From a virus, in the IMG/VR virus record IMGVR_UViG_3300045988_086486: DNA of 35,799 nucleotides, one strand, 5' to 3'. This document shows, piece after piece, positions 14,768 to 35,199 of the stretch (its first letter is position 1; each line of letters starts with the position of its first letter). The translations under genes were made by a program, and so were the position numbers. Below the pieces are notes generated by a model that was not told where the DNA came from, made no database searches, and saw only the letters and a list, made by a program, of their open reading frames with translations.

Positions 14768-14868
14768 CGCCGAATTCCGGCAACTCGTACAATGTGCGCA
14801 ATGTCAACACTTCGGGGGCATTGAACAACAACAACGCGTACAACGGCAACAGGGGCGTGCGTCCGCTT
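14768..14868 (+). repeat. DGR template repeat (TR), 101 bp with 27 adenines
   Basis: It aligns without gaps to 16801-16901 and, over 14791-14868, to 30492-30569. It reads as AAY-rich codons (NSGNSYNVRNVNTSGALNNNNAYNGNRGVRPL). Confidence 0.9.
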
Positions 14869-16127: not shown

Positions 16128-17861
16128 ATGTCGAAAAAGTTAAGCACGCTTGGCGTGGGAACAACCTTTGAAGTGCCCGTAAAGTCGGCTTATCGGTCGT
16201 TCTTGGGTGATTATGTCGTTTTCAAAATGGCAGACAAAAACCATTCGGGCTATCCGTCCGGAGCTATTACCCTGATTACCGACAAGATCATAGCGTTGCT
16301 TTGTTCCGACGCAAAAGAGCCAAACAACAGCGACAGCAACCGGAGAAGCTACGGCAACAACAGGCACATTCATTCCAATATCCTTCAATGGCTGAACAGT
16401 AACGCCGCGGCGGGAAAATGGTACAGCGCGAAGCACGGGCAGGACGCGCCGCCGTCAAGCGCGAATGTATGGGACAATGTAAACCCCTATGACACATGGG
16501 CGGGGTTCCTTGCTATGCTTGACGACGATTTTGTAGCGGCACTTATGACAACCACGCTTACCGTTGCAAAAAATACCGTTACGGACGGCGGGAGCTATGA
16601 AACCTTCACCGCAAAAATGTTCCTTGCAAGCACAACGGAAGTTGGGCTTGCAAACGAAAACGGGATTGCAGAGGGTTCAAAGCTGGCCTTGTTCAGCGAC
16701 AACACAAGCCGCCTTGCCTATTGTACGCAAGCGGCCATTGACAAAAGTAATTACGGGAGCGATCCGACGACTTCGCAGGCGTGGTATTGGTGGCTTCGCA
16801 CGCCGTATTCCGGCAACTCGTACTATGTGCGCTATGTCTACACTTCGGGGGCATTGGGCAGCTACAACGCGTACTACGGCTACTGGGGCGTGCGTCCGCT
16901 TTGTAATTTGAAATCTGATATTTTGGTATCTGATAACAAAAACAGCCGCGGAAACTATGAATTCCAGTGGAACACCGCACCGAGCGCGCCGGACGGAATT
17001 TCCGTGCCGGAAAGCTGTTACAGCACGCAAAACATAACCGTAACATGGGGAGCTTCCACCGATCCGGACGGCGACGCGATCACCTATGTTCTGGAACGGT
17101 CGGTGAATAACGGGAGCTACACGAAAGTAACGGAAACCGCCGCCCGCACCTTTACGGAAGTCGTTTCTACAAGTTGGAACACGATCAAATACCGCGTGAA
17201 GGCGCGGGACACCTACGGGAACGAAAGTGCGTATGTGACTTCTTCCGCGGTTCCCGTAATTCACAATCAACCGCCCGTCATTTCCGGACAAAACGCCGAT
17301 CTTGGAACGAAAAGCGGCGACTTCTCTTACAAGTACACCGTGACCGATCCGGACGGTGACACGGTGACAGTGGTTGAAAAGGTGGACGAAACCATCTTGC
17401 GGAGCTACACGCCCACGCTTGGAGAAGAAAACACGATGAATGTTACGGGGCACGACTTCACCGCCCTTTCCAACGGCGCGCACGCAATCACCATTACCGC
17501 AACGGACACCGTGGGAAATAAAGCGGTGCGCACGCTGACCTTCACAAAACAGATCAGCGGATTTGTTATCACGCTGGCCGCACCGCTGGAAGCGCAGGCA
17601 CAGCCCACGCGCGCAAATGTGAAAGTAACGCGGGAAATTCCAGCGGGCGCAACTTTCAAAGTTGAGGCAACAAACAATCCGTTTGATCCTTCCCCCGCGT
17701 GGGAGGATTGCACAAATGCCGTAATTCAGGGCGTGGCGCATGTCTTCGAGAACACAATAAACACCGCCGTTAAATTCGGCATGAATATTCGGGTAACGGT
17801 GGAGCGCGGCGACGCTATTTCCGCGTGTTGGGTATCTTCGATCGGGGGTAATTTTGAATGA
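16128..17861 (+). CDS. DGR target protein 1: N-terminal variable ligand-binding domain (DUF6273-like), then FN3-like and Ig-like modules
   Basis: ATG at 16128 lies after AAGGAGG. It contains VR1. The segment SAPDGISVP..ITVTWGASTDPDGDAITYVLERS..YRVKARDTYGNES looks like FN3. A second beta-rich module (VTDPDGDTVTV) follows. Confidence 0.85.
   Translation: MSKKLSTLGVGTTFEVPVKSAYRSFLGDYVVFKMADKNHSGYPSGAITLITDKIIALLCSDAKEPNNSDSNRRSYGNNRHIHSNILQWLNSNAAAGKWYSAKHGQDAPPSSANVWDNVNPYDTWAGFLAMLDDDFVAALMTTTLTVAKNTVTDGGSYETFTAKMFLASTTEVGLANENGIAEGSKLALFSDNTSRLAYCTQAAIDKSNYGSDPTTSQAWYWWLRTPYSGNSYYVRYVYTSGALGSYNAYYGYWGVRPLCNLKSDILVSDNKNSRGNYEFQWNTAPSAPDGISVPESCYSTQNITVTWGASTDPDGDAITYVLERSVNNGSYTKVTETAARTFTEVVSTSWNTIKYRVKARDTYGNESAYVTSSAVPVIHNQPPVISGQNADLGTKSGDFSYKYTVTDPDGDTVTVVEKVDETILRSYTPTLGEENTMNVTGHDFTALSNGAHAITITATDTVGNKAVRTLTFTKQISGFVITLAAPLEAQAQPTRANVKVTREIPAGATFKVEATNNPFDPSPAWEDCTNAVIQGVAHVFENTINTAVKFGMNIRVTVERGDAISACWVSSIGGNFE
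16801..16901 (+). repeat. DGR variable repeat 1 (VR1)
   Basis: 101 bp aligned to the TR. By hand alignment there are 11 mismatches, all at TR adenines, and no mismatch at a non-A position. Confidence 0.9.
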
Positions 17862-18715: not shown

Positions 18716-19723
18716 ATGGCAGTTATGAAAGCAAGTGAATTTGTTGCGAAACTGAAAGATGTTGCGCAGAATTACAAAACCCTTTATGTCATGGGGTGCT
18801 TTGGCGCGCCCCTGACGGGCGGCAATGTATCGCGGTATTGCAATAACCACGCATACAACAAGCAGGCCGCCCGAACGAAGATGATTAAGGCCGCCGCAAA
18901 CCAGAACCCGCCTGTTTTCGGGTTCGATTGCGTATGCCTGATTAAAGGCATTTTGTGGGGCTGGCGCGGCGACGCGTCCAAAACCTACGGCGGCGCGTCC
19001 TATGCCGTGAACGGCGTTCCGGATATTGGCGCGGATACCATGATTACAAAGTGCAAGGGCGTTTCAACCAACTTTTCCAATGTGGAGGTTGGCGAAGCCC
19101 TTTGGTGTAGCGGGCATATCGGTGTTTATATCGGCGGCGGGCTGGCCGTGGAGTGTTCCCCCGCCTTTGAAAACGATGTGCAGATCACGGCAGTTAAAAA
19201 CATGGGGACAAAGAGCGGGTATAACGCCCGCACATGGACGAAGCACGGCAAACTTCCCTATATCGAATACGACAACGCCGCCCCCGTTCAGCCGGACAAG
19301 CCGGACACCGGAGCGGGCGCAGGCGGCGCAATCAAGGCCGGAAGCGTCGTGCGTGTGAAGCAGGGCGCGAAGACCTACACGGGCGGCGGGCTGGCCTCTT
19401 TCGTGTATGAACGCGATCATGTCGTTTCGGAGCTGAACGGCGATCGCGCCGTTATCACCTACGGCGGCGTAACCGTGGCCGCCGTGCGCGTTTCCGATCT
19501 TGTTCTTGCAGATGGAAGCGGCACGGGCGGCACAATCAAGGCCGGAAGCGTCGTGCGCGTAAAGCAGGGCGCGAAGACCTACACAGGCGGCGGGCTGGCC
19601 TCTTTCGTGTATAGCCGCGATCATGTCGTTTCGGAGCTGAACGGCGATCGTGCCGTTATCACCTACGGCGGCGTGACCGTGGCCGCCGTGCGCGTTTCCG
19701 ATCTCACGCTTGTAAAGGAGTAA
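18716..19723 (+). CDS. Endolysin: NlpC/P60- or CHAP-like cysteine peptidase with two C-terminal cell-wall-binding repeats
   Basis: Cys (FDCVCLIKG) and His (GHIGVYIGG) motifs, a tandem pair of about 60-aa repeats, and location next to the holin gene. Confidence 0.8.
   Translation: MAVMKASEFVAKLKDVAQNYKTLYVMGCFGAPLTGGNVSRYCNNHAYNKQAARTKMIKAAANQNPPVFGFDCVCLIKGILWGWRGDASKTYGGASYAVNGVPDIGADTMITKCKGVSTNFSNVEVGEALWCSGHIGVYIGGGLAVECSPAFENDVQITAVKNMGTKSGYNARTWTKHGKLPYIEYDNAAPVQPDKPDTGAGAGGAIKAGSVVRVKQGAKTYTGGGLASFVYERDHVVSELNGDRAVITYGGVTVAAVRVSDLVLADGSGTGGTIKAGSVVRVKQGAKTYTGGGLASFVYSRDHVVSELNGDRAVITYGGVTVAAVRVSDLTLVKE
19322..19705 (+). repeat. Tandem near-identical 180-bp repeats (19322-19501 and 19526-19705, period 204 bp) encoding the endolysin binding modules
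   Basis: By eye, only a handful of nucleotide differences separate the two copies. Confidence 0.85.
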
Positions 19724-20947: not shown

Positions 20948-21598
20948 TTACTCATTCCGGAAACGCAATGTTATTTCCGCGCCATAGTTCCGGCCTTCGC
21001 CGCCGCCGTAAACCTCTATGTTTACGATCCCGTCGAGGCGTGAAAAATTGTCGTTCACATACGAAACATATTCGGCGGGAATATTCCCGATTTGATCGCC
21101 GTTGACATATACACCGAAAGCGGGCTTGCCTTCCCATTCTTCCCGTTGCAAAGTCAATTCCATTGTGCCCTTGTCGAAAGGTTCGTCTTTGAAGTGGATT
21201 TTGCGCAAAATGGTTTGACGGCTTTTGCGCCCGTTCTTGAAGGTAACGCCCGCAACCTTCACGGAAAGAAATTCAAAAGCGGGCTTTGCTTCGGAAGCCG
21301 GAGCGGGTGCGGCGGCTTCTGCTTTCGCAGGCCGCGGATCGGCGGCGGGTGTAACATGTGCGGTTGTATCTGCTTTAGGAGCAGGCGCGGCGGCCTCTTT
21401 CGGTTCCGTCGTGGCCGCGGGTGGTTCTTTCTTTGGTTCAGGCCGCGCGGCCTTTTTTCGCAAGCCAATAAAAAACAGCGCGGCGGCAATCACAATCCCA
21501 CAAACGCCCGCCCCTATATCGCCTTCGACAAATAGCGGGATTGAAGAAATAAGGAACAGCGCACCAACGCCCCACAGGATCAACACAGTTTTTTTCAT
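20948..21598 (-). CDS. Membrane-anchored HIRAN-like domain protein (lysogeny-module moron)
   Basis: This is the only convincing minus-strand gene. An AAAGGAG RBS precedes it. It has two N-terminal TM helices, a Pro/Ala/Lys-rich linker, and a C-terminal segment FLSVKVAGVTFKNGRKSRQTIL...LQREEWEGKPAFGVYVNGDQIGNIPAEY resembling HIRAN. Confidence 0.6.
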   Translation of the reverse strand: MKKTVLILWGVGALFLISSIPLFVEGDIGAGVCGIVIAAALFFIGLRKKAARPEPKKEPPAATTEPKEAAAPAPKADTTAHVTPAADPRPAKAEAAAPAPASEAKPAFEFLSVKVAGVTFKNGRKSRQTILRKIHFKDEPFDKGTMELTLQREEWEGKPAFGVYVNGDQIGNIPAEYVSYVNDNFSRLDGIVNIEVYGGGEGRNYGAEITLRFRNE

Positions 21599-21666
21599 AG
21601 TTTGAATAACTCCTTTCGTGTGCTTAAATTATGGCAACGAGGGAAGAATACTTTTCGTATTCTGAC

Positions 21667-21701
21667 CTTTAACACAATTATGCAGGCTTTTTGTGTTAAA
21701 G
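21667..21701. promoter_or_regulatory. Perfect 11-bp inverted repeat (CTTTAACACAA N13 TTGTGTTAAAG), candidate operator
   Basis: The arms at 21667-21677 and 21691-21701 overlap the -10 and -35 of the minus-strand promoter. Confidence 0.5.
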
Positions 21702-21705
21702 TCAA
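21677..21705 (-). promoter_or_regulatory. Minus-strand promoter TTGACT-17-CATAAT for the HIRAN-like gene
   Basis: The reverse complement of 21700-21705 is TTGACT and of 21677-21682 is CATAAT, with a 17-nt spacer. Confidence 0.5.
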
Positions 21706-21753
21706 GAAAAGTGCTGATGTTTAGCACAACGAGAGGGGCGCGGGTGATCGTGG

Positions 21754-22002
21754 GTGAAGATATACGACTATAAAGGCCGGAAGAATATATGCGGCGACAG
21801 AGTGCGGGAAGCACGGCAAAAGAAGCGGTTTACACAAGAGGCGTTAGCCGCGAAACTGCAAATTGAAGGCGTGACGATGGAGCGGGACAGCCTTTCAAGA
21901 ATTGAGATCGGAACACGGTTTGTTACCGATTATGAATTGAAAGTGCTTGCTAAAGTGTTGGGCGTGTCCCCTCTTTGGTTGCTTGACGATGAAAACGAAT
22001 GA
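21754..22002 (+). CDS. XRE-family helix-turn-helix regulator (CI/Cro-like)
   Basis: 82 aa with a GTG start. It carries the classic HTH_3 pattern (RVREARQKKRFTQEALAAKLQIEGVTMERDSLSRIEIG.R). Confidence 0.8.
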   Translation: MKIYDYKGRKNICGDRVREARQKKRFTQEALAAKLQIEGVTMERDSLSRIEIGTRFVTDYELKVLAKVLGVSPLWLLDDENE

Positions 22003-22030
22003 AGCGGCGGGAATTTCCCGCCGCTTTTGC
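22002..22030 (+). terminator. Intrinsic terminator after the first XRE gene
   Basis: AAGCGGCGGGA / TCCCGCCGCTT forms an 11-bp stem with a 3-nt loop, followed by TTGCTATTTTT. Confidence 0.6.
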
Positions 22031-22060
22031 TATTTTTCGCAATTATTTTTTGAAAAGCTA

Positions 22061-22089
22061 TTGACTTTATACGGCAAATGCCGTATAAT
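22061..22089 (+). promoter_or_regulatory. Near-consensus promoter TTGACT-17-TATAAT with an embedded 22-bp palindromic operator
   Basis: -35 at 22061-22066 and -10 at 22084-22089. The palindrome TTATACGGCA-AA-TGCCGTATAA spans 22067-22088 with perfect 10-bp arms. Confidence 0.65.
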
Positions 22090-22161
22090 AAAATCACAGG
22101 CAAGGGGAAGCCGAGTAAAACGAAAGGAGAAGACAACACCACCGGAAAGGGGGTGCGAAGA

Positions 22162-22278
22162 TTGACCGAAGAGCAAATAAAAGAACTGCTTGAACTTCTT
22201 AAAAAGGCTTTGGAGAGTGAAACGGTGGAGCGTATCACAATCAGCATAAAGCCAAACAAGAAGAACAAACAGTCCTAA
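22162..22278 (+). CDS. Small hypothetical protein (about 38 aa)
   Basis: The tracked ORF's ATG at 22078 sits inside the promoter/operator, so a downstream start is more plausible (TTG 22162 or GTG 22153, after GAAAGGGGG). The predicted peptide is helical (EEQIKELLELLKKALE). Confidence 0.3.
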   Translation: MTEEQIKELLELLKKALESETVERITISIKPNKKNKQS

Positions 22279-22358
22279 CAGATACGGTGGCGGGTATCCC
22301 CGCCCGTTGCCTTTATTATAACCGATAAAACGCGAAAATGTCAAGGGAGGTTCGGCGC

Positions 22359-22628
22359 GTGGATATTAGCGTTAAAATAGCATATAGAAACGAGAAATTG
22401 CAGGCCGCGCGGCTGGCGGCTGGTATGTCACAATCACAGCTTGCGGCGGCGGCGGGAATTTCCGTGCGTATCCTGCAAGACTACGAAAGAGGCGCGCGGG
22501 ATATTAACGGGGCAAAGTTGGCGACACTATTAAAAATTTGCAACGCCCTTGAATGTAGCTTGCGGGATATTCTCACCGATCCGGCCACGCTGGAAGGGCT
22601 GGACGAATACGACAAAAGAAGGAGTTAA
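22359..22628 (+). CDS. Second XRE-family HTH regulator
   Basis: GTG at 22359 lies 8 nt after AGGGAGG (an alternative ATG is at 22338). HTH_3 pattern: LQAARLAAGMSQSQLAAAAGISVRILQDYERG.R. Confidence 0.75.
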   Translation: MDISVKIAYRNEKLQAARLAAGMSQSQLAAAAGISVRILQDYERGARDINGAKLATLLKICNALECSLRDILTDPATLEGLDEYDKRRS

Positions 22629-22638
22629 TTTCAGGCGC

Positions 22639-22666
22639 AGGGGGCGGGAAACCGCCCCTTGTTTTT
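22639..22666 (+). terminator. Intrinsic terminator (GAAA-loop hairpin plus T-run)
   Basis: GGGGCGG GAAA CCGCCCC, followed by TTGTTTTTG. Confidence 0.65.
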
Positions 22667-22686
22667 GTTTATAGGGGGCGTGGAGC

Positions 22687-23730
22687 ATGGGGCATTGTTT
22701 TAGCCATTTGACAAAGGCAGACCGTTACAAGATCGAAGCGTTATTGAATAACGGCCATTCGGCAAAGGAGATCGCCGCGGAAATTCATGTGCATATCAGC
22801 ACTATTTACCGCGAAGTAAAACGCGCCCGCATGGTTCACCGTAATTCGGATTGGACGGAGGAAGAAAGGTATAATCCGGACGAAGCACACAGGCGATACC
22901 GTGAAAACCTTTCGGCAAAAGGCGCGCCGCTGAAAATTGGCCGTGATTACGCCCTTGCGGAATATCTGGAAAGAAAAGTGCTTGAAGAAGGCCGATCCCC
23001 CGCCGCCGCACTTGCCGACATTGCTTTAGAGGGGCTGGAATTCAAAACCACAATTTGCACAAGCACCTTTTACGGCTACATAACAAAGGGTGTGTTTCTT
23101 ATGCTGACAAACAAGGATTTGCCGGAAAAGGCAAAACGAAAGCGGAAATATCGCAAAGTGAAGACGGCCAAACGCGCCCCACGCGGGAAGAGCATAGAAA
23201 AACGCCCCGCCGAAGTGGAGGGGCGCGAAGTCTTCGGACATTGGGAAATGGATACCGTTTACAGCGGGAAGCAGACTTCAAAGAAAGCCCTTCTTGTGCT
23301 GACGGAGCGGAAGACGCGACAAGAAATTATAGAGCGTATGCCGGATCGGACGGAGGAAAGCACCATAAAGGCACTTGACCGTATAGAACGGCGGTTCGGC
23401 GCGCTATTCCGCAAAGTGTTCAAAACGATCACCGTTGATAATGGCGGGGAATTCTCCAATGTGGAAAGGTTGGAACAATCCGTGATCCGAAAGGGAAAGC
23501 GGACACGCTTTTACTATTGTCACCCGTACAGCAGTTTTGAACGGGGATCAAACGAAAACCAAAATAGAATGATACGGCGGCGATACCCTAAAGGAACAGA
23601 CTTCGGGAAGGTATCAACCGCCGCAATAAAGAACCTTGAACAATGGATCAATAACTATCCGCGTGAAATATTGGGCTGGAAAACTTCTGCAATGTGCTTC
23701 CGAGAATGCCTTGACGCGCTATTAAAATAA
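22687..23730 (+). CDS. IS30-family DDE transposase
   Basis: 347 aa. It has an N-terminal HTH (AKEIAAEIHVHISTIYREVKR) and DDE-region motifs GHWEMDTV, ITVDNGGEF and ERGSNENQNRMIRR. Confidence 0.88.
   Translation: MGHCFSHLTKADRYKIEALLNNGHSAKEIAAEIHVHISTIYREVKRARMVHRNSDWTEEERYNPDEAHRRYRENLSAKGAPLKIGRDYALAEYLERKVLEEGRSPAAALADIALEGLEFKTTICTSTFYGYITKGVFLMLTNKDLPEKAKRKRKYRKVKTAKRAPRGKSIEKRPAEVEGREVFGHWEMDTVYSGKQTSKKALLVLTERKTRQEIIERMPDRTEESTIKALDRIERRFGALFRKVFKTITVDNGGEFSNVERLEQSVIRKGKRTRFYYCHPYSSFERGSNENQNRMIRRRYPKGTDFGKVSTAAIKNLEQWINNYPREILGWKTSAMCFRECLDALLK
22687..23730 (+). mobile_element. IS30-like element core (transposase ORF only; terminal inverted repeats not identified)
   Basis: I found no convincing IR pair in 22629-22686 versus 23731-23892 by eye, so the element boundaries are unresolved. 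Confidence 0.35.
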
Positions 23731-23756
23731 ATTTTCAATTTTTTTCGCATTTACTA

Positions 23757-23785
23757 TTGACATTTGCGGGTGTGGGTTGTAATAT
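23757..23785 (+). promoter_or_regulatory. Promoter-like TTGACA-17-TAATAT
   Basis: -35 at 23757-23762 and -10 at 23780-23785. Confidence 0.5.
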
Positions 23786-23786
23786 T

Positions 23787-23848
23787 AAATGCGAAAGGAA
23801 ACGAATTCCCCCGAACGGGAATTACGAACCTTCCGCATTTATTTTTTT
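23787..23848 (+). terminator. Long compound hairpin plus T7 tract (terminator or attenuator)
   Basis: The outer stem pairs AAATGCGAAAGG (23787-23798) with CCTTCCGCATTT (23829-23840). The inner stem pairs AATTCCC with GGGAATT. T7 runs 23842-23848. Confidence 0.6.
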
Positions 23849-23892
23849 ATACCACAAACCACGATAAACCGCAATAGAAACGGGGTGAAGAC

Positions 23893-24144
23893 ATGGCGGG
23901 AAATTATAGGTATCTGGATTTTGAGGATCGAAAGAAGATCGAGGCGTGGCACGCCCGCGGGGATCGCCCGCTTGAAATCGCCGCGCGACTTGGCGTGCAT
24001 ACCGCGACGATCTACCGCGAATTGCAACGAGGCTATACCGGAGAAGCGGACGCGGCGCAACGCGAGATTTACAGCGCGGAGCGGGCGCAAGCGGTGGTTC
24101 GGGAAAACTTCAAGCGCAGAGGGCGAAGAAGTGTAAACCAATAA
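23893..24144 (+). CDS. Stand-alone IS30-type N-terminal HTH protein (transposase-derived regulator or remnant)
   Basis: 83 aa. LDFEDRKKIEAWHARGDRPLEIAARLGVHTATIYRELQRG parallels the N-terminus of the upstream transposase, but it is diverged and lacks a DDE domain. Confidence 0.6.
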   Translation: MAGNYRYLDFEDRKKIEAWHARGDRPLEIAARLGVHTATIYRELQRGYTGEADAAQREIYSAERAQAVVRENFKRRGRRSVNQ

Positions 24145-24164
24145 CGACGAAAGGGTTGTTTATC

Positions 24165-24353
24165 ATGATCTATACGCTTGAAAAGCGGCACGAATTCGGC
24201 GGCGGGACAATGACAACACATTGGGAAGTTCGCAGTTATACGCATGTAACGAAGATCGGCGTGTATGCAGGCGGGAAAACCTTGAAAAGCGGAACAAAGC
24301 CGGAATGCGAAAAGTTTTGCAGGATCAAAGGAATTAAACCGGAAGTGCGATAA
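24165..24353 (+). CDS. Hypothetical protein
   Basis: ATG at 24165 lies 9 nt after GAAAGGG. 62 aa. Confidence 0.35.
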   Translation: MIYTLEKRHEFGGGTMTTHWEVRSYTHVTKIGVYAGGKTLKSGTKPECEKFCRIKGIKPEVR

Positions 24354-24372
24354 AACACGGGAGGTTTTAACG

Positions 24373-24573
24373 GTGACTAATTTTGAAAAGCTGACGCAAT
24401 CCCCCGCGGGGCTTGGGGCATTCCTTCGGGGATTGCCGATTTTAGAAGGGCCGTGGGACGACGAATTTCACAAACGGTATTGCCGGAAGTGCCCTTCTAC
24501 GGATTGCACATATTGTCCGCATGAAAAATTCCGGAATAATCCGGAATGGTGGTTAAACCTAAAAGCACGATAG
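24373..24573 (+). CDS. Hypothetical Cys-rich small protein
   Basis: 66 aa, with a GTG start after GGGAGG. It has a CxxCxxxxCxxC pattern (CRKCPSTDCTYCP). Confidence 0.45.
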   Translation: MTNFEKLTQSPAGLGAFLRGLPILEGPWDDEFHKRYCRKCPSTDCTYCPHEKFRNNPEWWLNLKAR

Positions 24574-24596
24574 GCGCGAAAGGAGCTATTCAAACT

Positions 24597-24776
24597 ATGT
24601 TGATGAAATATGCCGCGATCGTGACTTACACAGACGGGAGCAAAACAGGCGCAACCATAGAGGCACAAAGCGCGGCTAAAGCGTGGAATAAAATATTGAA
24701 TTTGTTTAATCCGGAAACCATATCAGGAATTGAGGTTGCCGCGATATTGGCAGAAGAAAGGGAGTGTAAAGCGTGA
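24597..24776 (+). CDS. Hypothetical protein
   Basis: ATG at 24597 is preceded by the conserved cassette GCGAAAGGAGCTATTCAAACT. Confidence 0.45.
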   Translation: MLMKYAAIVTYTDGSKTGATIEAQSAAKAWNKILNLFNPETISGIEVAAILAEERECKA

Positions 24777-25597
24777 ATTTAGTTTCTTTTGGCGGCGGTA
24801 CGAATAGCACCGCAATGATTATCGGCATGTATCTTCGGAAAATTCCGATTGATCTTATTATCTTCGCAGGCACAGGCGCAGAACAGCCGCACACCTACAA
24901 ATTTATAGAACAGTTCAACGCATGGTTAATAAATCACGGCTTGCCGGAGATCACAACGGTTTACACAACGGATAAAGAGGGCAACCGCCTTTTCCTTGAA
25001 GCGGAATGTTTTGAGCGCAAGACGCTTCCGGCAATCGCTTTCGGGTTTAAGACCTGTTCGCAAAAATATAAAATTCGCCCTACGGAAAAGTTTTTGAACA
25101 ATAACGCGGCATGTAAAGCGGAATGGGCGGCGGGGCGAAAAATTATAAAGTTTATCGGATACGACGCAGGCGAAACACGAAGAGTTCAACACGGCGAGGC
25201 GGCGAACGAACAAAACAAGAAAATTGAAAACCGTTACCCGCTCTATGAATGGGGGTGGGATCGCGCGGAATGCGTGCGTGTGATCCAGCGGGCAGGGCTT
25301 CCGCTTCCTGCAAAATCAAGTTGCTATTTCTGTCCTTCCATGAAGAAGAAGGAAATTCAAGCCCTTTGGGAACAATTCCCTGATCTATTTCAAAAAGCGG
25401 TAGAAATTGAGCGAAACGCCGCAGAAAATTTGAAAACGGCGAAGGGGCTTGGCCGTTCGTGGGCGTGGGGCGACTATTACGCGGAATTTATGCGGGCAAA
25501 GGAGTTTGAAGAAGCGCAAATTTCCTTCGATCAATTATTTCCGGAAACAAAGGGCGGTTGCTTATGTGGTGCGCCGTGTGGTTGCTATGACGGATAA
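24773..25597 (+). CDS. PAPS-reductase-like PP-loop (adenine nucleotide alpha-hydrolase) protein with a C-terminal Cys cluster
   Basis: It has an SFGGGTNS PP-loop near the N-terminus, CYFCP, and a terminal CLCGAPCGC. 274 aa. Confidence 0.7.
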   Translation: MNLVSFGGGTNSTAMIIGMYLRKIPIDLIIFAGTGAEQPHTYKFIEQFNAWLINHGLPEITTVYTTDKEGNRLFLEAECFERKTLPAIAFGFKTCSQKYKIRPTEKFLNNNAACKAEWAAGRKIIKFIGYDAGETRRVQHGEAANEQNKKIENRYPLYEWGWDRAECVRVIQRAGLPLPAKSSCYFCPSMKKKEIQALWEQFPDLFQKAVEIERNAAENLKTAKGLGRSWAWGDYYAEFMRAKEFEEAQISFDQLFPETKGGCLCGAPCGCYDG

Positions 25598-26231
25598 ACA
25601 GACTATGAGCCGCAGACGCAAGCCGCGCCGCCGTTCGCCCCTTCCCTTCCTGCTTCTGGCCGTGGCGGTTGTCGGGTGCGCCTTCGCCGTAGCGGTTGCG
25701 GCAGTGGTTCCGATGGAGGCCGACAGCCCCGGCGGGCAGGATCAAGCGTTCCCCGCGCCTACGCTTGAAGAGGCCGAGCGGGACAAGCTGGACGCACCCG
25801 CGGCGGCAACGCCGACACATACGCCCGCCCCATACATACCGGACGAAGCGGAAGTTGAAATGCTGGCGCGCCTGATATGGGGCGAAGCCCGCGGCATTCC
25901 TTCGGATATGCACAAAGCGGCGGTTGTGTGGTGCGTCCTGAACCGCGTTGACGCGGAAGGCTGGCCGGACACCGTGGCCGAAGTAGTAACACAGCCGCAC
26001 CAATTCGCCGGATATTCGCCGGACTATCCGGCAACAGAGGAATTCAAGGCGATTGCCGCCGATGTGCTGATACGGTGGGAGCGGGAAAAACGGGAAGGCG
26101 GCGAGGTTGGCCGCGTCCTTCCCGCTGAATATGTCTTCTTCACGGGTGATGGAGAAGTAAACCATTTCCGGACGGAATACGAAGGCGGCATGTTTTGGGA
26201 TTGGAGCTTGAAAAATCCATACAGCAGTTAA
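25587..26231 (+). CDS. Cell-wall hydrolase (SleB / Hydrolase_2-like) with an N-terminal signal anchor
   Basis: ATG at 25587. It has a TM helix (LPFLLLAVAVVGCAFAVAVAAVV), then EMLARLIWGEARG..AVVWCVLNRV...QPHQF, which is typical of SleB-like domains. Confidence 0.7.
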   Translation: MTDKQTMSRRRKPRRRSPLPFLLLAVAVVGCAFAVAVAAVVPMEADSPGGQDQAFPAPTLEEAERDKLDAPAAATPTHTPAPYIPDEAEVEMLARLIWGEARGIPSDMHKAAVVWCVLNRVDAEGWPDTVAEVVTQPHQFAGYSPDYPATEEFKAIAADVLIRWEREKREGGEVGRVLPAEYVFFTGDGEVNHFRTEYEGGMFWDWSLKNPYSS

Positions 26232-26252
26232 GCGAAAGGAGCTATTCAAACT

Positions 26253-26573
26253 ATGTCGAAGCAGAAGCAGGACAAGCGGGGCGGCGGCTGGCAGTTCCCC
26301 CGCCCGATCGAAATTATCAAGTGCAAAGAGGGCAACAAAGAATACATGAAGGAACGCCCCGCACGCAAGCCTTACGGAAGGATCGTCAAGGTGTGCGAAT
26401 TCAGCCTTGAAGCCGTCGCAGAGTTTGGCGACGACGACGCGCGGACGGTGTGGAGGCTGGCAAAGCGGGCGGCGCGCGACTTCTTGCGGGTATCGTGGAT
26501 CAATACGGCCATTGTAACCGCCGCGAAAACCGATCGCCCTTATATGGCCGTGATTGTTTACGGCAAATATTAA
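26253..26573 (+). CDS. Hypothetical protein
   Basis: 106 aa. The ATG is preceded by the conserved cassette GCGAAAGGAGCTATTCAAACT. Confidence 0.5.
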   Translation: MSKQKQDKRGGGWQFPRPIEIIKCKEGNKEYMKERPARKPYGRIVKVCEFSLEAVAEFGDDDARTVWRLAKRAARDFLRVSWINTAIVTAAKTDRPYMAVIVYGKY

Positions 26574-26586
26574 GGGGGCGGCGGGA

Positions 26587-26931
26587 ATGTCAAACAAAGC
26601 GGAGCTTTTGAAGAAAATAAAAGCTCTTGCCGATCGGGGCGTTGACGGAGAGCGCGAGAGCGCACAAACCCTTCTTGCCCGCCTGATGGAGCAATACGGG
26701 ATCAGCGAAACCGAGATTGAAGAGGAACGCCGCGAAACAGCATGGTTCCCTTACAGTCAAGAAACCGAACGGCGGTTGTTGAACCAGATCATTTATATGG
26801 TGACAGGTGCGGGCGGCTTCGGGTGCGTTGGCGAATATAGCGGGCGCAAGCGAAAAAGATGGGGACGGAATGCACCGCCGCGGAACGGTTGGAAATCGAA
26901 GCGAATTACGCCTTTTTCAAAGAGGCAATGA
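26587..26931 (+). CDS. DUF2786-like protein, N-terminal part (frame changes near an A5 run at 26853-26857)
   Basis: ATG at 26587. KKIKALADRG..ERESAQTLLARLMEQYGI matches the DUF2786-like helical motif. The last ~24 aa are basic and low-complexity, suggesting an out-of-frame tail. Confidence 0.5.
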   Translation: MSNKAELLKKIKALADRGVDGERESAQTLLARLMEQYGISETEIEEERRETAWFPYSQETERRLLNQIIYMVTGAGGFGCVGEYSGRKRKRWGRNAPPRNGWKSKRITPFSKRQ

Positions 26932-27128
26932 AGAAAGAGCTTGAAATATTTTATTCAGCATTCGCAAGCAAAAACAATCTTTTCCCGCCCGCCGACAAAG
27001 TGAAGCCGCGAAGCATTGAAGAGCTTTCGCCGGAAGAAAAATCCTACTATGCGAAAGTGGGGTTGATGGCCGAAGGCATGGAGCGGCACACATTACGCAA
27101 GGCCATTGCCGCGGGCGAAACCGAGTAA
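26859..27128 (+). CDS. Hypothetical protein, or the C-terminal part of the split DUF2786-like gene
   Basis: This ORF is in the -1 frame relative to 26587. That frame opens only 6 codons before the ATG at 26859. The sequence looks protein-like (ERLEIEANYAFFKEAMKKELEIFY). Confidence 0.5.
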   Translation: MGTECTAAERLEIEANYAFFKEAMKKELEIFYSAFASKNNLFPPADKVKPRSIEELSPEEKSYYAKVGLMAEGMERHTLRKAIAAGETE

Positions 27129-27141
27129 AGGAGGATCACAC

Positions 27142-27438
27142 ATGCAAAGAGCTATTCAAAACACACAGGCGGCCACGCGCCGCCGTTCCCGCCCTCTTCG
27201 GGTAGCGGGAAGCACATTGACGGCGAATGTTGCCTTTACCGTCCTGAAATACGCCGCCCTTACCGCGGCGGGCGTTCTTCTCTTCCGTTGGGGGCAGGGG
27301 TACGCCCTTGCCGAACGCGGATACGAGGCGATCGGCGGTGAAGCGTTGCTTTTAGGGTTGCCGCTGTTCTGGTATCTGACGGAAACCACGATCCGCGATA
27401 CCGTGCGGGACTTCCGGAAGGGAGGCCGCCGCAAATGA
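27142..27438 (+). CDS. Hypothetical membrane protein
   Basis: ATG at 27142 lies after AAAGGAGG. Two hydrophobic helices are present. Confidence 0.45.
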   Translation: MQRAIQNTQAATRRRSRPLRVAGSTLTANVAFTVLKYAALTAAGVLLFRWGQGYALAERGYEAIGGEALLLGLPLFWYLTETTIRDTVRDFRKGGRRK

Positions 27439-28097
27439 AGATAAAGAGCATTGCCGCGATATGCAAGAAAAACAAACAGGTTGTTTTATTCAACCGATAC
27501 AGCGATAGCGGCACAATATCGCAGTACATAGGCGACGGAAACGCGGTTTACCCTATTTCCGGCCTTCCGGAGCTGGACGAAGAAAGCATTTTAACGATCT
27601 TCGATGTGCCGGAGAAACAGCGCGAAGACTGGCTTGTGCGGTATCGTGACATTCCGGAGGGGATCAGCTTCGAGGACACCGACGCAACCGAAAAGATCAT
27701 TGAACAAGGCAACCTTTCGATTGTGTATAGCGGAAAGACCTTGAAGCCCTTGCAGACACGCCGCGGGCTGGTTTTCATCGAAAGCCGCTATTTGTCGCCC
27801 GTTTCAGATGTGCTTGATGTGTTGGAGCTTTACGAGCGGGTAACGCCTTTCGGTGCGCCGTATATCGTGGCAAAAGCGGGCTTTCTGCTTCAAGCGGTAA
27901 TTATGCCGTGTGATGTTATAAGCGCGCAATTCGTCCAACGCCTGCAAGAGCTGACACGGCAATGCGCCGTTTCTCTTGACCTTCGGGAACAGGAGCGGGA
28001 GCGGCAGGCCGCCGCAGAGAGCGCGGGGCAATTCAAGGTTGATCCGGAAACGGGGGCAATCATTGAACCGGAAAGCGAGGCGGGCGACGATGATTAG
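27435..28097 (+). CDS. Hypothetical protein (acidic C-terminus)
   Basis: 220 aa. The start overlaps the preceding stop (ATGA). I recognised no motif. Confidence 0.55.
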   Translation: MKIKSIAAICKKNKQVVLFNRYSDSGTISQYIGDGNAVYPISGLPELDEESILTIFDVPEKQREDWLVRYRDIPEGISFEDTDATEKIIEQGNLSIVYSGKTLKPLQTRRGLVFIESRYLSPVSDVLDVLELYERVTPFGAPYIVAKAGFLLQAVIMPCDVISAQFVQRLQELTRQCAVSLDLREQERERQAAAESAGQFKVDPETGAIIEPESEAGDDD

Positions 28098-28380
28098 GAC
28101 GCAGAGGCATTCCCGCTTTGTGCTGATGTCGCTTGATGAAATCCGCGCCACGCGGGACATTGTATTGCAGACGGAGGAAACGAAAAGCAATTTTTCCGGA
28201 TCGGGCAAAACGGTTTATATTTGCGAAGTTGTGCGCCCTTGCGATTATCAAAAGGAAACGGACACCGCCGCGGACAAGCTGGCCGCAGAGATCGAGCGGG
28301 TAAACGCCGACAACCGCGCCTTGCGCCGGAAGGTTGAACGCCTTGAACGAGAATTACAGAAAGCGAGGGCGGGCGCATGA
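28090..28380 (+). CDS. Hypothetical protein with a C-terminal coiled coil
   Basis: The ATG at 28090 overlaps the preceding gene's end. The C-terminus is AEIERVNADNRALRRKVERLERELQKA. Confidence 0.45.
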   Translation: MIRTQRHSRFVLMSLDEIRATRDIVLQTEETKSNFSGSGKTVYICEVVRPCDYQKETDTAADKLAAEIERVNADNRALRRKVERLERELQKARAGA

Positions 28381-28832
28381 ACAAGGCTTTGTTATCCTCT
28401 AAAAATATGTGCTGGTGTACGCCGCAAGACTTCTTCGACAAGCTGAACGAAGAATTTTCCTTCACGCTGGACGCGGCGGCCACAGACAAAACGGCAAAAT
28501 GCCCGCTATATTTCACGCCGGAAACGGACGGGCTTAAATCCTCTTGGAAGGTTGCGGGGGGGGGTACAGTATTTTGCAATCCCCCGTATGGGCGCGAAAT
28601 CGGCAAGTGGGTTCAAAAGGCATACGAAGAGGCGCAGGCCGGAACGCCGATTGTTCTTCTTATTCCAGCGCGTACCGATACAAGCTATTTCCACGATTTT
28701 ATATACCACAAAGCGGAAATTCGCTTTATTCGTGGGCGGCTTCGGTTTACGGACGACGACGGCAACGCCGCCGATCCCGCGCCCTTCCCCTCTATGCTGG
28801 TGATTTATAACGGAAAGGCGGTGAAATCGTGA
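28377..28832 (+). CDS. Phage DNA N6-adenine methyltransferase (Dam-type)
   Basis: 151 aa. W.TPQDFFD.L..EF.F.LDAAA is followed by the catalytic NPPY motif. Confidence 0.85.
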   Translation: MNKALLSSKNMCWCTPQDFFDKLNEEFSFTLDAAATDKTAKCPLYFTPETDGLKSSWKVAGGGTVFCNPPYGREIGKWVQKAYEEAQAGTPIVLLIPARTDTSYFHDFIYHKAEIRFIRGRLRFTDDDGNAADPAPFPSMLVIYNGKAVKS

Positions 28833-28996
28833 AATACAAGGTTTGCGATCGGCGCGGAAGTCACCTTGACTATGGCGAAACATGCGAATGCGTGAAAGAG
28901 GCCGAACAGGAAGAGAGGGTGCGCAATGCTGAAAATCAGAAGGATCAAAACAGACAAGTTCAAAACCGCGGCGTTTTGGATCGAAAAGCGGGATAA
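28829..28996 (+). CDS. Small Cys-containing protein (VKYKVCDRRGSHLDYGETCEC...)
   Basis: 55 aa. The GTG overlaps the methyltransferase stop (GTGA). This N-terminal C..(C/R)G..LD.GE.C.C pattern recurs in Firmicute phages. It is below the ORF-track length cutoff. Confidence 0.4.
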   Translation: MKYKVCDRRGSHLDYGETCECVKEAEQEERVRNAENQKDQNRQVQNRGVLDRKAG

Positions 28997-29128
28997 CGAA
29001 TACATAGCGTGCCGAACGCTTGTAAATGCCCTTTTGGGTATTGCTTCCACTTCTATTATGAGCAGAGGGCAAGAGGCGTTGAAAAAGGCGTATGAAACGC
29101 GCCGAATTTGAAAGGAGCAGTTCAGACG

Positions 29129-29512
29129 ATGGAAAAACAGGGATTGAACGAGCTTGCCGCGGCGGTACATGAAAATGCCGTTGCGCATGGCTGGTGGGAG
29201 CAGGAACGGGAATTGCCCGAAATCCTTATGCTTTGCGTTTCGGAGCTTGCGGAGGCTTTGGAAGAGTACCGCGCCGGAAAGCCGAACATTTATTACAATG
29301 TCGAAGGCGAAGAAATACTTTATGCGGACGGGGAGGCGTGCGAAAAGCACGAGCGGCGCAAGCCGGAAGGCGTGGCGGTGGAATTGGCCGATTGCATGAT
29401 CCGCATTCTGGACTATTGCGGGCACGCCGGAATTGATATTGAAGAGGCAATACGGATCAAGCACGAATACAACAAAACCCGCCCATATCGTCACGGCGGG
29501 AAGAAATGTTGA
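29129..29512 (+). CDS. MazG-like nucleotide pyrophosphohydrolase
   Basis: ATG at 29129 lies after GAAAGGAG. Motifs: HGWW...SELAEALEEYR...ELADCMIRILDY...K..YN..RPYRHGGK. Confidence 0.75.
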   Translation: MEKQGLNELAAAVHENAVAHGWWEQERELPEILMLCVSELAEALEEYRAGKPNIYYNVEGEEILYADGEACEKHERRKPEGVAVELADCMIRILDYCGHAGIDIEEAIRIKHEYNKTRPYRHGGKKC

Positions 29513-29886
29513 CCGCGGGAGCGGGGCGGCTGGTATCGCCCTTTGCAAATGATCCGTTCGCGTTGGTTGCACTGGCCTTCAAGAACCTTTACCCCGAACG
29601 GGAATACGCGGCCTATTTTGCGCCGGAGGTAGAAGACGGAAGCGGCGGCGCGGCTTGCGGGGTGACAACCTTTCCGGAAGACGGATCGCCGCCCGTTGTG
29701 GAGGTATCCGGAGAAATCCCCATTGCGGCAGGCGTTGAAATATTCGCGCACGAATTGGCGCATGTCGCCACGCCGGAAGATCGGGAGCATGGCGAAGCGT
29801 GGAAGGCCGCCTTTGACCGGATTTTTGAGGAATACAACCGGATCGCGCAAGACCTTTTCGGGGAAGGCGGCGAAGAACCATGCTGA
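29506..29886 (+). CDS. Small HExxH-motif protein (putative metallopeptidase-like)
   Basis: 126 aa containing FAHELAHV. The stop overlaps ATG 29880 of the next ORF. Confidence 0.45.
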   Translation: MLTAGAGRLVSPFANDPFALVALAFKNLYPEREYAAYFAPEVEDGSGGAACGVTTFPEDGSPPVVEVSGEIPIAAGVEIFAHELAHVATPEDREHGEAWKAAFDRIFEEYNRIAQDLFGEGGEEPC

Positions 29887-30038
29887 ACGAGCGGGAGCAG
29901 GCCGCACACGATCCCACGATTGCAGAAACGGCGCAGGGGCTTTCCCTTGCGTTTGAAAAATTGAAAGCCGATATATCACAATCACGCGCCGCCCGCTTTG
30001 TGTTGGCGGTGCTGGAAAAATTGAAAGGAGCTATTCAA

Positions 30039-30956
30039 ATGGAAAAGACTTTGAAAACCGGAAAGATCGGACAGTTTGGTGCAGAAAGCCGCGTTACATA
30101 CGGCGGTGTGAAGTGGGTTGTGCTGGACGCACGCCCGAATATGTCGCTTTGTCTTGCGGAAGATGTGTTGAAGGACGAAAACGGCGAAGTTCGGTACATG
30201 GCTTTCGACACGGACAATAAGAACGATTTTGCCGCCTCTTCCGTCCGCGCTTTCCTGAACGGTGATTTTCTGGAAGAGCTGGCCGCCGCGGGTGCGGACA
30301 AAGAAGCGTTTGTGCCGATCGTCCTTGACCTGACTTCCGACGACGGTTTAGACGATTACGGCACGGACAGCGCAAAGATCGGGCTTATCACGGATCAGAT
30401 GTACCGCGCATTCCACAAAATCATTCCGAAAGCGTCGGAAGACTATTGGACTTGTACCCCGTTTTCAACCGAGCGGAACGGCTATAAAAGTTTTGTGCGC
30501 CATGTCGGCGCTTCGGGGGCGTTGCTCAACAGCGACGCGTACATCGGCCGCGGGGGCGTGCGTCCGCTTTGCGCTCTGAAATCTGATATTTTGGTATCTT
30601 ATGACGAAGGAGAAGTGAACGAGCGCAAGCCGTCGTTCGGTGAAATGATCGGGAAAGCCCTTGCGGAAGGGCTGAACAAGGCCATTTTTGGGGAAGACGA
30701 AGAGCCGAAGGGCATTCTTGCCGAAGCGGAGGCGCAGGCCGCCCGCGAAAAGGAGCAGGAAGACGAAGACCAGAAACGCGCGGACGCGGTGGACATGATG
30801 AAGCACATTGCCGCCGCCTTCGATATTCCGGCCACAATCGGAGAAGGCAAACAGGAAGAGCAGGAAAAAGAAGCAAAACAGCTTTTCGGCTGGTATTCGG
30901 AGCTGAAAAAGGCCGGATTTACCGACGCGCAGGCGTTCGAGCTTATCAAGGGATAA
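30039..30956 (+). CDS. DGR target protein 2 (DUF6273-like variable domain plus acidic helical C-terminal tail)
   Basis: ATG at 30039 is preceded by the conserved cassette GAAAGGAGCTATTCAA. An in-frame alternative start at 29880 overlaps the upstream stop. The gene contains VR2, and its domain end (SGAL..A..G..GVRPLC.LKSDILVS) is shared with target 1. Confidence 0.8.
   Translation: MEKTLKTGKIGQFGAESRVTYGGVKWVVLDARPNMSLCLAEDVLKDENGEVRYMAFDTDNKNDFAASSVRAFLNGDFLEELAAAGADKEAFVPIVLDLTSDDGLDDYGTDSAKIGLITDQMYRAFHKIIPKASEDYWTCTPFSTERNGYKSFVRHVGASGALLNSDAYIGRGGVRPLCALKSDILVSYDEGEVNERKPSFGEMIGKALAEGLNKAIFGEDEEPKGILAEAEAQAAREKEQEDEDQKRADAVDMMKHIAAAFDIPATIGEGKQEEQEKEAKQLFGWYSELKKAGFTDAQAFELIKG
30492..30569 (+). 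repeat. DGR variable repeat 2 (VR2)
   Basis: 78 bp align without gaps to TR 14791-14868. By hand alignment there are 15 mismatches, all at TR adenines, and all non-A positions are identical. Confidence 0.88.
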
Positions 30957-30962
30957 CAGAAA

Positions 30963-30989
30963 AGGCCGCCCCGCACGATGGGGCGGCCT
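30963..30989. terminator. GC-rich hairpin after target 2
   Basis: AGGCCGCCCC / GGGGCGGCCT forms a 10-bp stem with a 7-nt loop. There is no T-run on the + strand, so function is uncertain. Confidence 0.35.
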
Positions 30990-31028
30990 ATCCCCTATAC
31001 ATTATATATAAGAAAGGACGGGTTCAAA

Positions 31029-31172
31029 ATGACGGCATTTGAATTTATGGTTGCCGCCTTTTATGCGCTTGTCGGCGTGGTTTGCCTTTCCGTGGCGGTT
31101 GTGATCGTGTATGCCGTTGTGGTAGGCATTTATAGAGGATTGAAAGGCGGTGGACACCGTGGCAGAAAATAA
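31029..31172 (+). CDS. Small single-pass membrane protein
   Basis: 47 aa with a hydrophobic core (FMVAAFYALVGVVCLSVAVVIVYAVVVGI) and a basic tail. Confidence 0.35.
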   Translation: MTAFEFMVAAFYALVGVVCLSVAVVIVYAVVVGIYRGLKGGGHRGRK

Positions 31173-31569
31173 AACCTTCAACGAAGAAGCCCTTGTTGAA
31201 ATGGCGCACACGATGGGTTTTGACCTTGCGCACGCGTGCGCGGCGGCGGCTGACGCATTCGCCCGCGGCGTGGCCGATGGCTTCGCCGCCTATGCGCAAG
31301 AGCTGGCCGCCGAAAACGGCGGCGTTGAGCTGGTACACGATGGAGAAGACGAAGAACCGGAGTTGAAAACGGATATTCAGGATTGCCGCCGTTGCTGGTG
31401 CGATACATGCGGCAAGTTGGAAGAGTGCAAAAAGCACCGCGACGGCACACAGCCGGACGGCTTGCGCCCGCTTCCGTGTATCGGGTGCGTGAACGGCCTT
31501 CGGTTCAAGCCGAAGGAAGAAGAGCCTTGCGAAGAGTACACGGAGGCCGCGGGCTTTAATAACGGATAG
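31150..31569 (+). CDS. Hypothetical protein with a Cys-rich C-terminus
   Basis: About 139 aa with a GTG start. It has an acidic middle, then CRRCWCDTCGK..C....CIGC. Confidence 0.45.
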   Translation: MDTVAENKTFNEEALVEMAHTMGFDLAHACAAAADAFARGVADGFAAYAQELAAENGGVELVHDGEDEEPELKTDIQDCRRCWCDTCGKLEECKKHRDGTQPDGLRPLPCIGCVNGLRFKPKEEEPCEEYTEAAGFNNG

Positions 31570-31577
31570 AAAAGAAG

Positions 31578-31608
31578 AAGGCGGCTTGCGTTGCCTGCAA
31601 GCCGCCTT
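31578..31608 (+). terminator. Hairpin after 31150..31569
   Basis: AAGGCGGCTTGC / GCAAGCCGCCTT forms a 12-bp stem with a 7-nt loop. The T-run is weak (TTTC). Confidence 0.45.
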
Positions 31609-32007
31609 TCCCCCTTCGCGTCGCCGCGAAAAGAGCTATTCAAACTAACGACAGTATAACACCGCGGCGGCAGAATGTCAAGAAACGCCGGAACACGGCG
31701 TATTACGGGCTTGTAATGGGTATTAACACATGGACGGAAAAGCAGAATTCCGGAAGTGCTGGTTTGTATTCAATTCCCCGTCGCCTGCTTTATCAGGATC
31801 ACGGAGGCGGCAAGCTGTCAAGGGTGCGACAGCACCGCGAAAGCGGCTTGCCCTTGATGGGTTGTTGCCGGAGTGATAGAAGCAGGAAAGGCGGCGGGGA
31901 TAAATGCAAACCTTCCGGCCTTGCGTGTTCAATTCCTTTGAGCCTGCTTCCCCCTTTAGGGGGACGGGAGGGGGTGAAACCTTTACCACGAGCAGGGAGG
32001 AAACAAC

Positions 32008-33145: not shown

Positions 33146-33158
33146 GGGGGTGCGCGCG

Positions 33159-33825: not shown

Positions 33826-33851
33826 AAAAGAAGCGGTTTTTGAAGCTGGTT

Positions 33852-34277: not shown

Positions 34278-34279
34278 AC

Positions 34280-34510: not shown

Positions 34511-34531
34511 ACGGAAAGCGAGGGTTCAGAC

Positions 34532-35158: not shown

Positions 35159-35173
35159 AACAGGCCGAAAAAT

Positions 35174-35195: not shown

Positions 35196-35199
35196 GCCC

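Follow-up and report, generated by a model that had tools for sequence, protein, structure and literature searches.

The present analysis concerns a viral DNA of 35,799 nucleotides (IMG/VR record IMGVR_UViG_3300045988_086486; this whole stretch is called the window below) and, within it, a gene for a transposase of the insertion sequence (IS) IS30 family, which is followed by the gene of an 83-residue paralog limited to the N-terminal helix-turn-helix (HTH) region. The assembly is circular, with a unit length of 35,700 bp and a 99-bp terminal overlap (35701-35799 repeats 1-99), and the plus strand holds nearly all genes of the window. A public record gives this contig as a k99 metagenome contig of 35,717 bp. 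Taken together, the evidence makes it very probable that one IS30-type transposable unit comprises the siphovirus-like genome in full (35.7 kb), and that the phage is of the kind known from the IScream phages and from phage FP_Lagaffe. Comparison at the sequence level shows for this unit exact ends, a variable 2-nt spacer, insertion at many unrelated sites, an invariant 15-bp target duplication, and an oriented mode of insertion. The left part of the unit (23771-35799, plus strand), which holds the early and replication genes and extends to those for packaging, runs on at position 1 into the right part (1-23768, plus strand), with the terminase, head, tail, diversity-generating retroelement (DGR), lysis, regulator, and transposase genes.

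Transposase, HTH-only paralog, and abutted ends

The transposase gene (22687-23730, plus strand) encodes a protein of 347 aa with HTH_38 and rve domains, which scores 231.7 bits against the NCBIfam model NF033563 "IS30 family transposase" (cut-off, 80 bits). Residues D189, D251, and E290 are invariant across ten transposase homologs of 61-82% identity, so that the intact IS30-type enzyme with complete DDE motifs, which the earlier note had read from the letters, is borne out by these three lines. Homologs are abundant in Oscillospiraceae and other Clostridia, and a search of solved structures with the transposase gave no match. We infer that the product of this gene is the integrase/excisionase of the phage. 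The gene had been taken to extend to 23892; its stop codon is actually at 23728-23730, and the 162 bases from 23731 to 23892 are intergenic. A 400-bp insertion in the transposase gene of IMG/VR relatives was suspected from matches of 1437 bp and was discarded, as such a match merely runs into the HTH paralog.

The next gene (23893-24144, plus strand) carries an HTH_38 domain only, and its product matches residues 1-79 of the transposase with 37% identity (E 4e-11), in keeping with the earlier claim that its homology is to the IS30 HTH alone. An exact-protein look-up of this product found no record. The gene is the first behind the left end of the unit and points inward, and it occupies this place in the window, in Lagaffe, and in mini-elements of 2.5 kb (see below); the transposase gene points outward at the right prophage edge. 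No tyrosine or serine recombinase domain of Pfam was detected in the 52 open reading frames (ORFs) scanned, i.e., every large gene on the plus strand and, of the minus-strand ORFs, the ten largest, a set that covers short ORFs and the six frames less than exhaustively, and within that set the reported lack of such a recombinase holds. A megablast search of 21500-25000 against deposited phages returned no match.

Between the two genes lie two 28-nt imperfect inverted repeats. A 10-nt core is common to both and lies 16 nt from the tip in either of them. The right terminal inverted repeat (IRR, 23741-23768, plus strand) contains the core TTTCGCATTT (23743-23752) and an outward-facing -35 hexamer TTGACA (23757-23762), and its tip is 23768. 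The left terminal inverted repeat (IRL, 23771-23798, plus strand) begins with the tip TGTGGG at 23771 and contains a -10 hexamer TAATAT (23780-23785) and the core AAATGCGAAA (23787-23796). The repeats are abutted, with the 2-nt spacer GG at 23769-23770 between them, the right tip being 38 bp past the stop codon of the transposase and the left tip 122 bp before the HTH-only gene. The earlier observation that no terminal inverted repeats flank the transposase gene is thus literally true, but the repeats exist, side by side and 3' of the gene.

These positions follow from the comparison of different contexts. When seven contexts were aligned 3' of the transposase stop codon, all shared ...TTTTTTTCGCATTTACT(A/C)TTGACATTT plus three bases and then diverged, the identity reaching up to ...TTGACATTTKSS, the right tip at 23768; within this alignment, three contigs with an identical transposase have three different flanks, and a fourth contig ends at the divergence point. 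On the other side, left junctions from IMG/VR in many host contexts all start with TGTGGGTTG / TGTGGGTTGTAATATT, and since all of them open with TGTGGGTTGTAATATT, the left tip is 23771. A motif search found four copies of the end motif in the window (0.08 expected by chance), namely one at each tip, one at 23829-23850 in the 3' arm of a hairpin described below, and one at 22033-22054 on the plus strand (TTTTTCGCAATT), which has right-end orientation. A 40-nt palindrome in 23771-23856 was also considered as a pair of ends and rejected: the true center of symmetry lies at 23769/70, and what had looked like a pair of ends is the left-end hairpin.

This arrangement bears directly on the idea that an ordinary IS30-family IS inserted into a phage with another way of integrating, the HTH-only gene being a remnant, which was one of the two readings offered for the locus. 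The transposase is indeed a typical full-length protein of the family, and a truncated paralog is nearby. Against this, no left inverted repeat is found 5' of the transposase gene, where the only end-motif copy (22033-22054) has right-end orientation; both ends are abutted 3' of the gene rather than placed around it; no other recombinase is present in the ORFs scanned; the arrangement of XRE regulator, transposase, and end is kept in relatives whose transposases are 55-74% identical; and an empty site was not shown by any relative examined. The mobile unit is the whole genome, and we regard a plain IS insertion as highly improbable.

Integrated copies, target duplication, and target site

Integrated copies of the same phage, at 93-98% identity, were found by BLAST at five loci (L180, L052, L125, L012, and L208). 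The prophage in the cultured Pseudoflavonifractor sp. Marseille-P3106 (98.4% identity) starts exactly at 23771, and at three right-junction loci the homology to the window stops at 23768/9. In two genomes of Oscillibacter valericigenes, a 74%-identical transposase is the last prophage gene, and the host genes recJ, relA, pgi, and dtd begin 177 bp past it. A scan of species-representative genomes gave at least 120 loci, which were pooled with loci from IMG/VR, and all counts given here are samples. In more than 100 different contexts, the prophage-host junctions of the phage and its relatives coincide with the 23768 and 23771 ends, as would not be expected of an ordinary IS lodged in a phage; the proposed comparison of prophage ends with the position of the transposase gene has therefore come out in favor of the transposase.

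At least 63 distinct left flanks and at least 70 distinct right flanks were collected. At least 11 of these could be matched as left/right pairs of one insertion, and every pair has a 15-bp target duplication; two of the 11 pairs are on single contigs, and two are in one Acutalibacter intestini isolate, so that this isolate harbors two insertions at separate sites. Ends present twice or more often in one isolate genome, at different sites, were seen in A. intestini M00204 (L150, L153, L157, and L182) and in Neglectibacter sp. X58 (L147, L159, and L189), and in the multi-copy isolates each matched pair has its own 15-bp duplication. The prophage junctions, together with these duplications, support the second reading of the locus, which takes the DDE enzyme for the integration function of the phage itself.

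Counted outward from the tip, the consensus of 62 left flanks is A-rich at positions 18-22, TTGACA at 27-32, and TATAAT at 50-55. When flanks were tested for a promoter in this register, 38 of the 62 passed, compared with 0-1 at eight shifted registers, and the mirrored promoter motif was found on the right side in only 2 of 70 flanks. A promoter consensus that is present on the left and rare on the right indicates oriented insertion, and the flank comparison shows that the left end lands 26 bp upstream of the -35 box of host promoters of sigma-70 type, which fire away from the prophage. For example, the target in Pseudoflavonifractor (L180, 3380-3490, minus strand) is TTGACA-17-TATAAT, followed by a unit of ~100 nt that ends in an intrinsic terminator. 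A small RNA is one possibility for this unit, which lies convergent to a gene of beta-eliminating-lyase-like type. A scan of the junction loci for tRNA genes found none, and a tRNA-like sequence at the edge of one locus (L004) is cut by the contig end.

Three points weigh against the single IS30-type unit as described here. First, a 69.8-kb contig (IMGVR_UViG_3300045988_027025; L114/L070) contains both ends ~46 kb apart with no matching 15-bp duplication. Second, the duplication of 15 bp is longer than the 2 bp duplicated by IS30 itself and lies outside the 2-3 bp that serve as a criterion for the IS30 family. Third, no more than 38 of the 62 left flanks passed as promoters, and the preference for promoters is thus strong rather than absolute. 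The left flank of the 69.8-kb contig resembles the end of another phage gene; the element may have inserted into a second prophage there, or copies of it may have rearranged with each other.

Mini-elements of 2.5 kb were also seen (L004 1-2888, L005, and L177), in which the same ends enclose no more than four genes (HTH-only, XRE, XRE, and transposase). One of them is flanked by a 15-bp duplication, with a tRNA-like promoter close by on its downstream side. Either such elements are the ancestral form, or they are IS-like remnants that derive from the phage.

The same small elements matter for the composite-transposon framing of the IScream paper (PMC12823448), in which two IS30 copies would bracket the phage, the inward copy having decayed to the HTH-only gene, and the outer ends would mobilize the whole. 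In favor of this framing, the HTH-only gene has the place, relative to the left end, that the 5' part of the transposase gene would have in an IS, the full gene lies before the right end, and both genes are paralogs in the same orientation. However, there is one inverted repeat per extremity and there are no inner repeat pairs that would delimit separate IS copies, so that the element behaves mechanistically as one IS with 35 kb of cargo, and the mini-elements with the same ends hold nothing but the HTH-only gene, the two XRE genes, and the transposase gene. As a present mechanism, a composite transposon adds nothing to the single-unit model and bears on evolutionary origin only; we consider it improbable.

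The circle junction and its candidate promoter

In the circular form, the two ends are separated by the junction spacer, which is GG in the window (23769-23770) and differs between otherwise near-identical phage genomes. A junction search that allowed spacers of 0-6 nt recovered 16 junction types, all with a spacer of exactly 2 nt. Near-identical phage contigs from other samples have AA, AC, CC, GG, or TT at this place, and other lineages, with the left tips CGCGCC, GGCGGC, CGTAGG, TGCAAA, and CGCGGC, have AG, AT, CT, GA, CG, TG, or TT; the overall set is AA, AC, AG, AT, CC, CG, CT, GA, GG, TG, and TT. In the circle of IS30, the ends are likewise abutted via a 2-bp spacing, as the transposase links the tips by a 2-base bridge (PMC9333248). 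A spacer of exactly 2 nt, being a hallmark of IS30, argues for a transposase-made circle, and the two spacer bases probably come from flanking host DNA.

The prophage runs from the left end (23771) through the HTH-only gene, the early and replication genes, packaging, head, tail, and lysis genes, the XRE regulators, and the transposase gene to the right end (23768). By the IS30 paradigm, the transposase would join the two ends by a 2-base bridge taken from the flanking host DNA; and the resulting circle with abutted ends would be the substrate for the next integration. Packaging would start from a site of HNH/terminase type near position 1 and not from the integrated state. In the window, the HNH endonuclease gene (35288-35644) adjoins the small terminase gene, as in the cos-type packaging modules of HK97-like phages. 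The Rep protein of ORF2/G2P type (32008-32922) suggests rolling-circle-type initiation.

A Mu-like life style, in which the DDE enzyme drives replicative transposition during lytic growth and DNA is packaged by headful from integrated copies, would fit an enzyme of the DDE/rve fold, many insertion sites, and several copies in some genomes. The assembly is a unit-length circle with joined ends, though, and the same junction was assembled in many samples; HNH, small terminase, and large terminase are arranged as in cos-type phages, and the cos site of Lagaffe has been mapped; a rolling-circle-type Rep gene is present; and no MuB-like ATPase was seen. We give replicative transposition of the Mu type almost no chance here.

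Joining the ends also brings together a promoter-like sequence, TTGACA-17-TAATAT (23757-23785, plus strand; 10/12 consensus positions in the promoter scan), which we call Pjunc. Its -35 box comes from the right end, 6 nt from the tip, and its -10 box from the left end, 9 nt from the tip, so that the 17-bp spacing requires the 2-nt spacer. This arrangement is kept in all junction types and lineages. In integrated copies, the host flank supplies the left-end -10 box with a -35 box of at least 5/6 matches in 0 of 63 cases, and the right-end -35 box with a -10 box of at least 5/6 matches in 0 of 71. The promoter scan found no other promoter-like site ahead of the HTH-only gene. We infer that Pjunc is active as a promoter.

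Directly 3' of the -10 box lies a terminator-like hairpin (23786-23841, plus strand) followed by a T7 run (23842-23848), which together would act as an insulator at the left end; the arms of the hairpin carry the end motif twice, in inverted orientation. On its own, the hairpin of 56 nt folds with -22.7 kcal/mol (z -6.2), and the 125-nt segment around it (23771-23895) with -35.7 kcal/mol (z -4.6). Folded singly, 33 of 33 distinct left ends have the hairpin and the T-run; the outer stem is invariant, and the inner stems vary by lineage and are still paired. A consensus fold from a MAFFT alignment recovered only part of the stem because of indels.

These features suggest how the junction would work. 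In the circle, it would form a promoter directed at the HTH-only gene and at the early genes on the plus strand; in the prophage, that promoter would be split, with the -35 and -10 boxes at opposite ends of the element. The left-end hairpin and T-run would block read-through, since transcripts entering from outside would form the full hairpin and stop, while those starting inside its 5' arm would lack the full hairpin and pass through. With a promoter present only in the circle and a terminator at the left end, the early genes would be switched on by circularization itself. We tentatively propose, as a possibility somewhat less likely than not, that the junction is a master switch: the early promoter would exist in the circle only, the early operon of the prophage would be promoterless and shielded by a terminator, and the circles made by the transposase would trigger lytic development with no classical repressor-operator at this place. 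Part of the same tentative proposal is that the 26-bp register and the 15-bp duplication are new for the IS30 family and that the virion genome carries a 2-nt record of its last site.

The HTH-only protein may have its place in this circuit. It would bind the AAATGCGAAA motif, of which either end has a copy, as do the arm of the hairpin and the stretch ahead of the internal promoter described below, and it would modulate the action of the transposase or of the two promoters, for example, by competing with the transposase for sites. Binding of the shared motif with such a modulating effect is, in our hypothesis, the most likely role of this paralog.

Genome context and relation to known elements

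The region upstream of the transposase gene is of lysogeny type, as the earlier note had stated on account of two XRE regulators and a minus-strand gene, all of which were recovered. The minus-strand ORF is at 20948-21598. The first XRE-type HTH regulator (82 aa, 21754-22002, plus strand) matches Pfam HTH_31 and HTH_3 and is conserved 5' of the transposase in relatives; the second (22338-22628, plus strand) matches HTH_3 and HTH_26, and in the public assembly it starts at 22359 and has 89 aa. Between the two regulators, next to the internal copy of the end motif, lies a promoter-like site TTGACT-17-TATAAT (22061-22089, plus strand; 11/12 consensus positions), which likely drives a unit of a 38-aa ORF, the second XRE gene, and the transposase gene. 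Between the latter two is a terminator-like hairpin with a T-run (22637-22672, plus strand), which in the terminator scan has 11 pairs, 8 of them G-C, followed by TTTTGTTTAT. A perfect consensus promoter TTGACA-18-TATAAT on the minus strand (22315-22344) overlaps the start of the second XRE gene; its predicted transcript would be antisense to the 38-aa ORF, and it looks like part of a divergent switch.

The rest of the window has the gene set of a tailed phage (TerL, portal, capsid, protease, tape measure, Dit, tail endopeptidase, and a peptidoglycan-binding lysis protein). By function, the plus strand is ordered as small and large terminase, portal, prohead protease, major capsid protein, tape measure, Dit, and tail endopeptidase, followed by the DGR and the lysis genes, the one minus-strand ORF, and the two XRE-type regulators. 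After the regulators come the transposase gene, the HTH-only gene, and the early/replication genes (PAPS-reductase-like, cell-wall hydrolase, Dam, Rep of ORF2/G2P type, and VRR-NUC), with the HNH endonuclease directly before the terminase.

Six relatives (L180, L052, L056, L232, L161, and L063) have no BLAST match to 24600-25616, which includes most of the PAPS-reductase-like gene (24773-25597), and are otherwise 92-98% identical to the window, so far as this segment is set aside. On sequence grounds, it appears to be a variable cargo slot near the left end. The last of these relatives (L063) is 96-98% identical to the window in the left arm (23771-28825) and just 70-79% in the terminase region, a mosaic from which it follows that the module of the end and the early genes is swapped between different phage backbones.

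The DGR consists of a bAvd gene (14309-14713), a template repeat (14768-14868), and a reverse transcriptase gene that ends at 16002. Its variable repeat (16801-16901) lies within a DUF6273 tail protein, and 11 of 11 mismatches are at template adenines. A further repeat copy (30494-30569; 83% identical) in another DUF6273 protein may be a second variable repeat. A tandem duplication of 185 nt (19316-19704; 94% identity) inside the ORF 18716-19723 is a repeated protein module outside the DGR, because its mismatches are not adenine-specific.

That a tailed phage can carry an IS30 transposase in place of an integrase is already published (Lagaffe in 2018, IScream in 2025). Prophage clusters with IS30 transposases were listed by Jiang et al. 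(2017). For the Faecalibacterium phage FP_Lagaffe (Lagaffevirus, MG711461), Cornuault et al. (2018; PMC5883640) reported virions, a cos site, flanking direct repeats, a DGR, and an integrase of the IS30 family that they called "atypical". As in the window, a gene for an "integrase, IS30 transposase family" (55% identical) is followed by an HTH gene, and the holin gene, minus-strand ORF, small ORFs, and transposase gene come in a similar order. Both phages have a DGR. Past the stop codon of the Lagaffe transposase lies the same abutted-end motif, ...TTTCGCATTTACTCTTGAC... / ...TAATATTAAATGCGAAAGG, followed by a hairpin and a T-run; there are 33 nt between the cores of Lagaffe compared with 34 in the window, and therefore the promoter spacing of Lagaffe would be 16 bp. 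In contrast to the window, Lagaffe has 48 kb and is of myovirus type, and the two share no similarity at the nucleotide level.

The class of IScream phages was named by Wirbel, Hickey et al. (Nature 2025; preprint 10.1101/2025.05.09.652943), with 1,780 candidates in a gut virus catalogue (PMC12823448), and the circular form of the one in Blautia hansenii was found to be DNase-protected (PMC12823448). Among phages of this kind, it is for Lagaffe and the Blautia hansenii phage that the literature shows virion production. Like the window, these are prophages of gut Clostridia with no tyrosine or serine integrase, with many host contexts, and with a circular form; an outward full-length IS30 transposase lies at one end and a truncated, catalytically dead IS30-like ORF at the other. 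The window agrees with every sequence-level criterion of the class: its transposase is outward, with the stop codon 38 bp from the right tip (within 1 kb in the definition), and at its other end the inward 83-aa HTH_38-only ORF starts 122 bp from the left tip. The paper frames its phages as composite-transposon-like, and the window is a new, 35.7-kb, siphovirus-like member. The main texts of the Nature paper and the preprint make no mention of phage-end inverted repeats, target site, target duplication, promoter, or minicircle, and a literature search found no follow-up paper to this work. The comparison of sequences made here adds the precise termini, the spacer of 2 nt, the target duplication of 15 bp, the targeting of promoters, and the putative junction promoter, none of which comes up in the main texts of the Lagaffe and IScream papers.

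A large element moved by an enzyme of this kind is also seen in Staphylococcus aureus, in which the conjugative element ICE6013 is moved by an IS30-like transposase via a circular form, with a short duplication. IS30 itself, from E. coli, transposes by copy-out, paste-in, and its two ends form a strong Pjunc (PMC9333248). It shares with the unit in the window the transposase family, imperfect terminal inverted repeats, a circle with the ends 2 bp apart, and a junction promoter, which is putative in the window. IS30 prefers near-palindromic hot spots or its own ends, whereas the element described here prefers promoters of sigma-70 type, and the junction promoter of IS30 reads into the transposase gene, whereas here it would read into the HTH-only paralog and the phage genes, the cargo being a whole phage.

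Oriented promoter targeting is known from TnGBS, ISLre2, and ISKra4, which insert 15-17 bp upstream of promoters (PMC3942029). They resemble the unit in the window in this targeting and in that a large mobile element uses a DDE transposase where an integrase would be expected. They differ from it in having an unrelated, IS256/Mutator-like transposase, in the distance (15-17 bp compared with 26 bp here), and in being conjugative elements and ISs rather than phages. A literature search found no report of promoter targeting by the IS30 family.

An IS30 transposase acting as integrase explains how such phages enter many sites and many gut hosts, and the anatomy of the ends gives rules for prophage borders that standard tools miss. 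Insertion next to promoters would provide a safe-harbor target and predicts effects on the neighboring host promoters. The unit in the window also suggests a minimal system of two ends plus a transposase that is able to carry more than 35 kb of cargo, and its anatomy at the base-pair level turns the idea of integration by an IS30 transposase into a testable mechanism.

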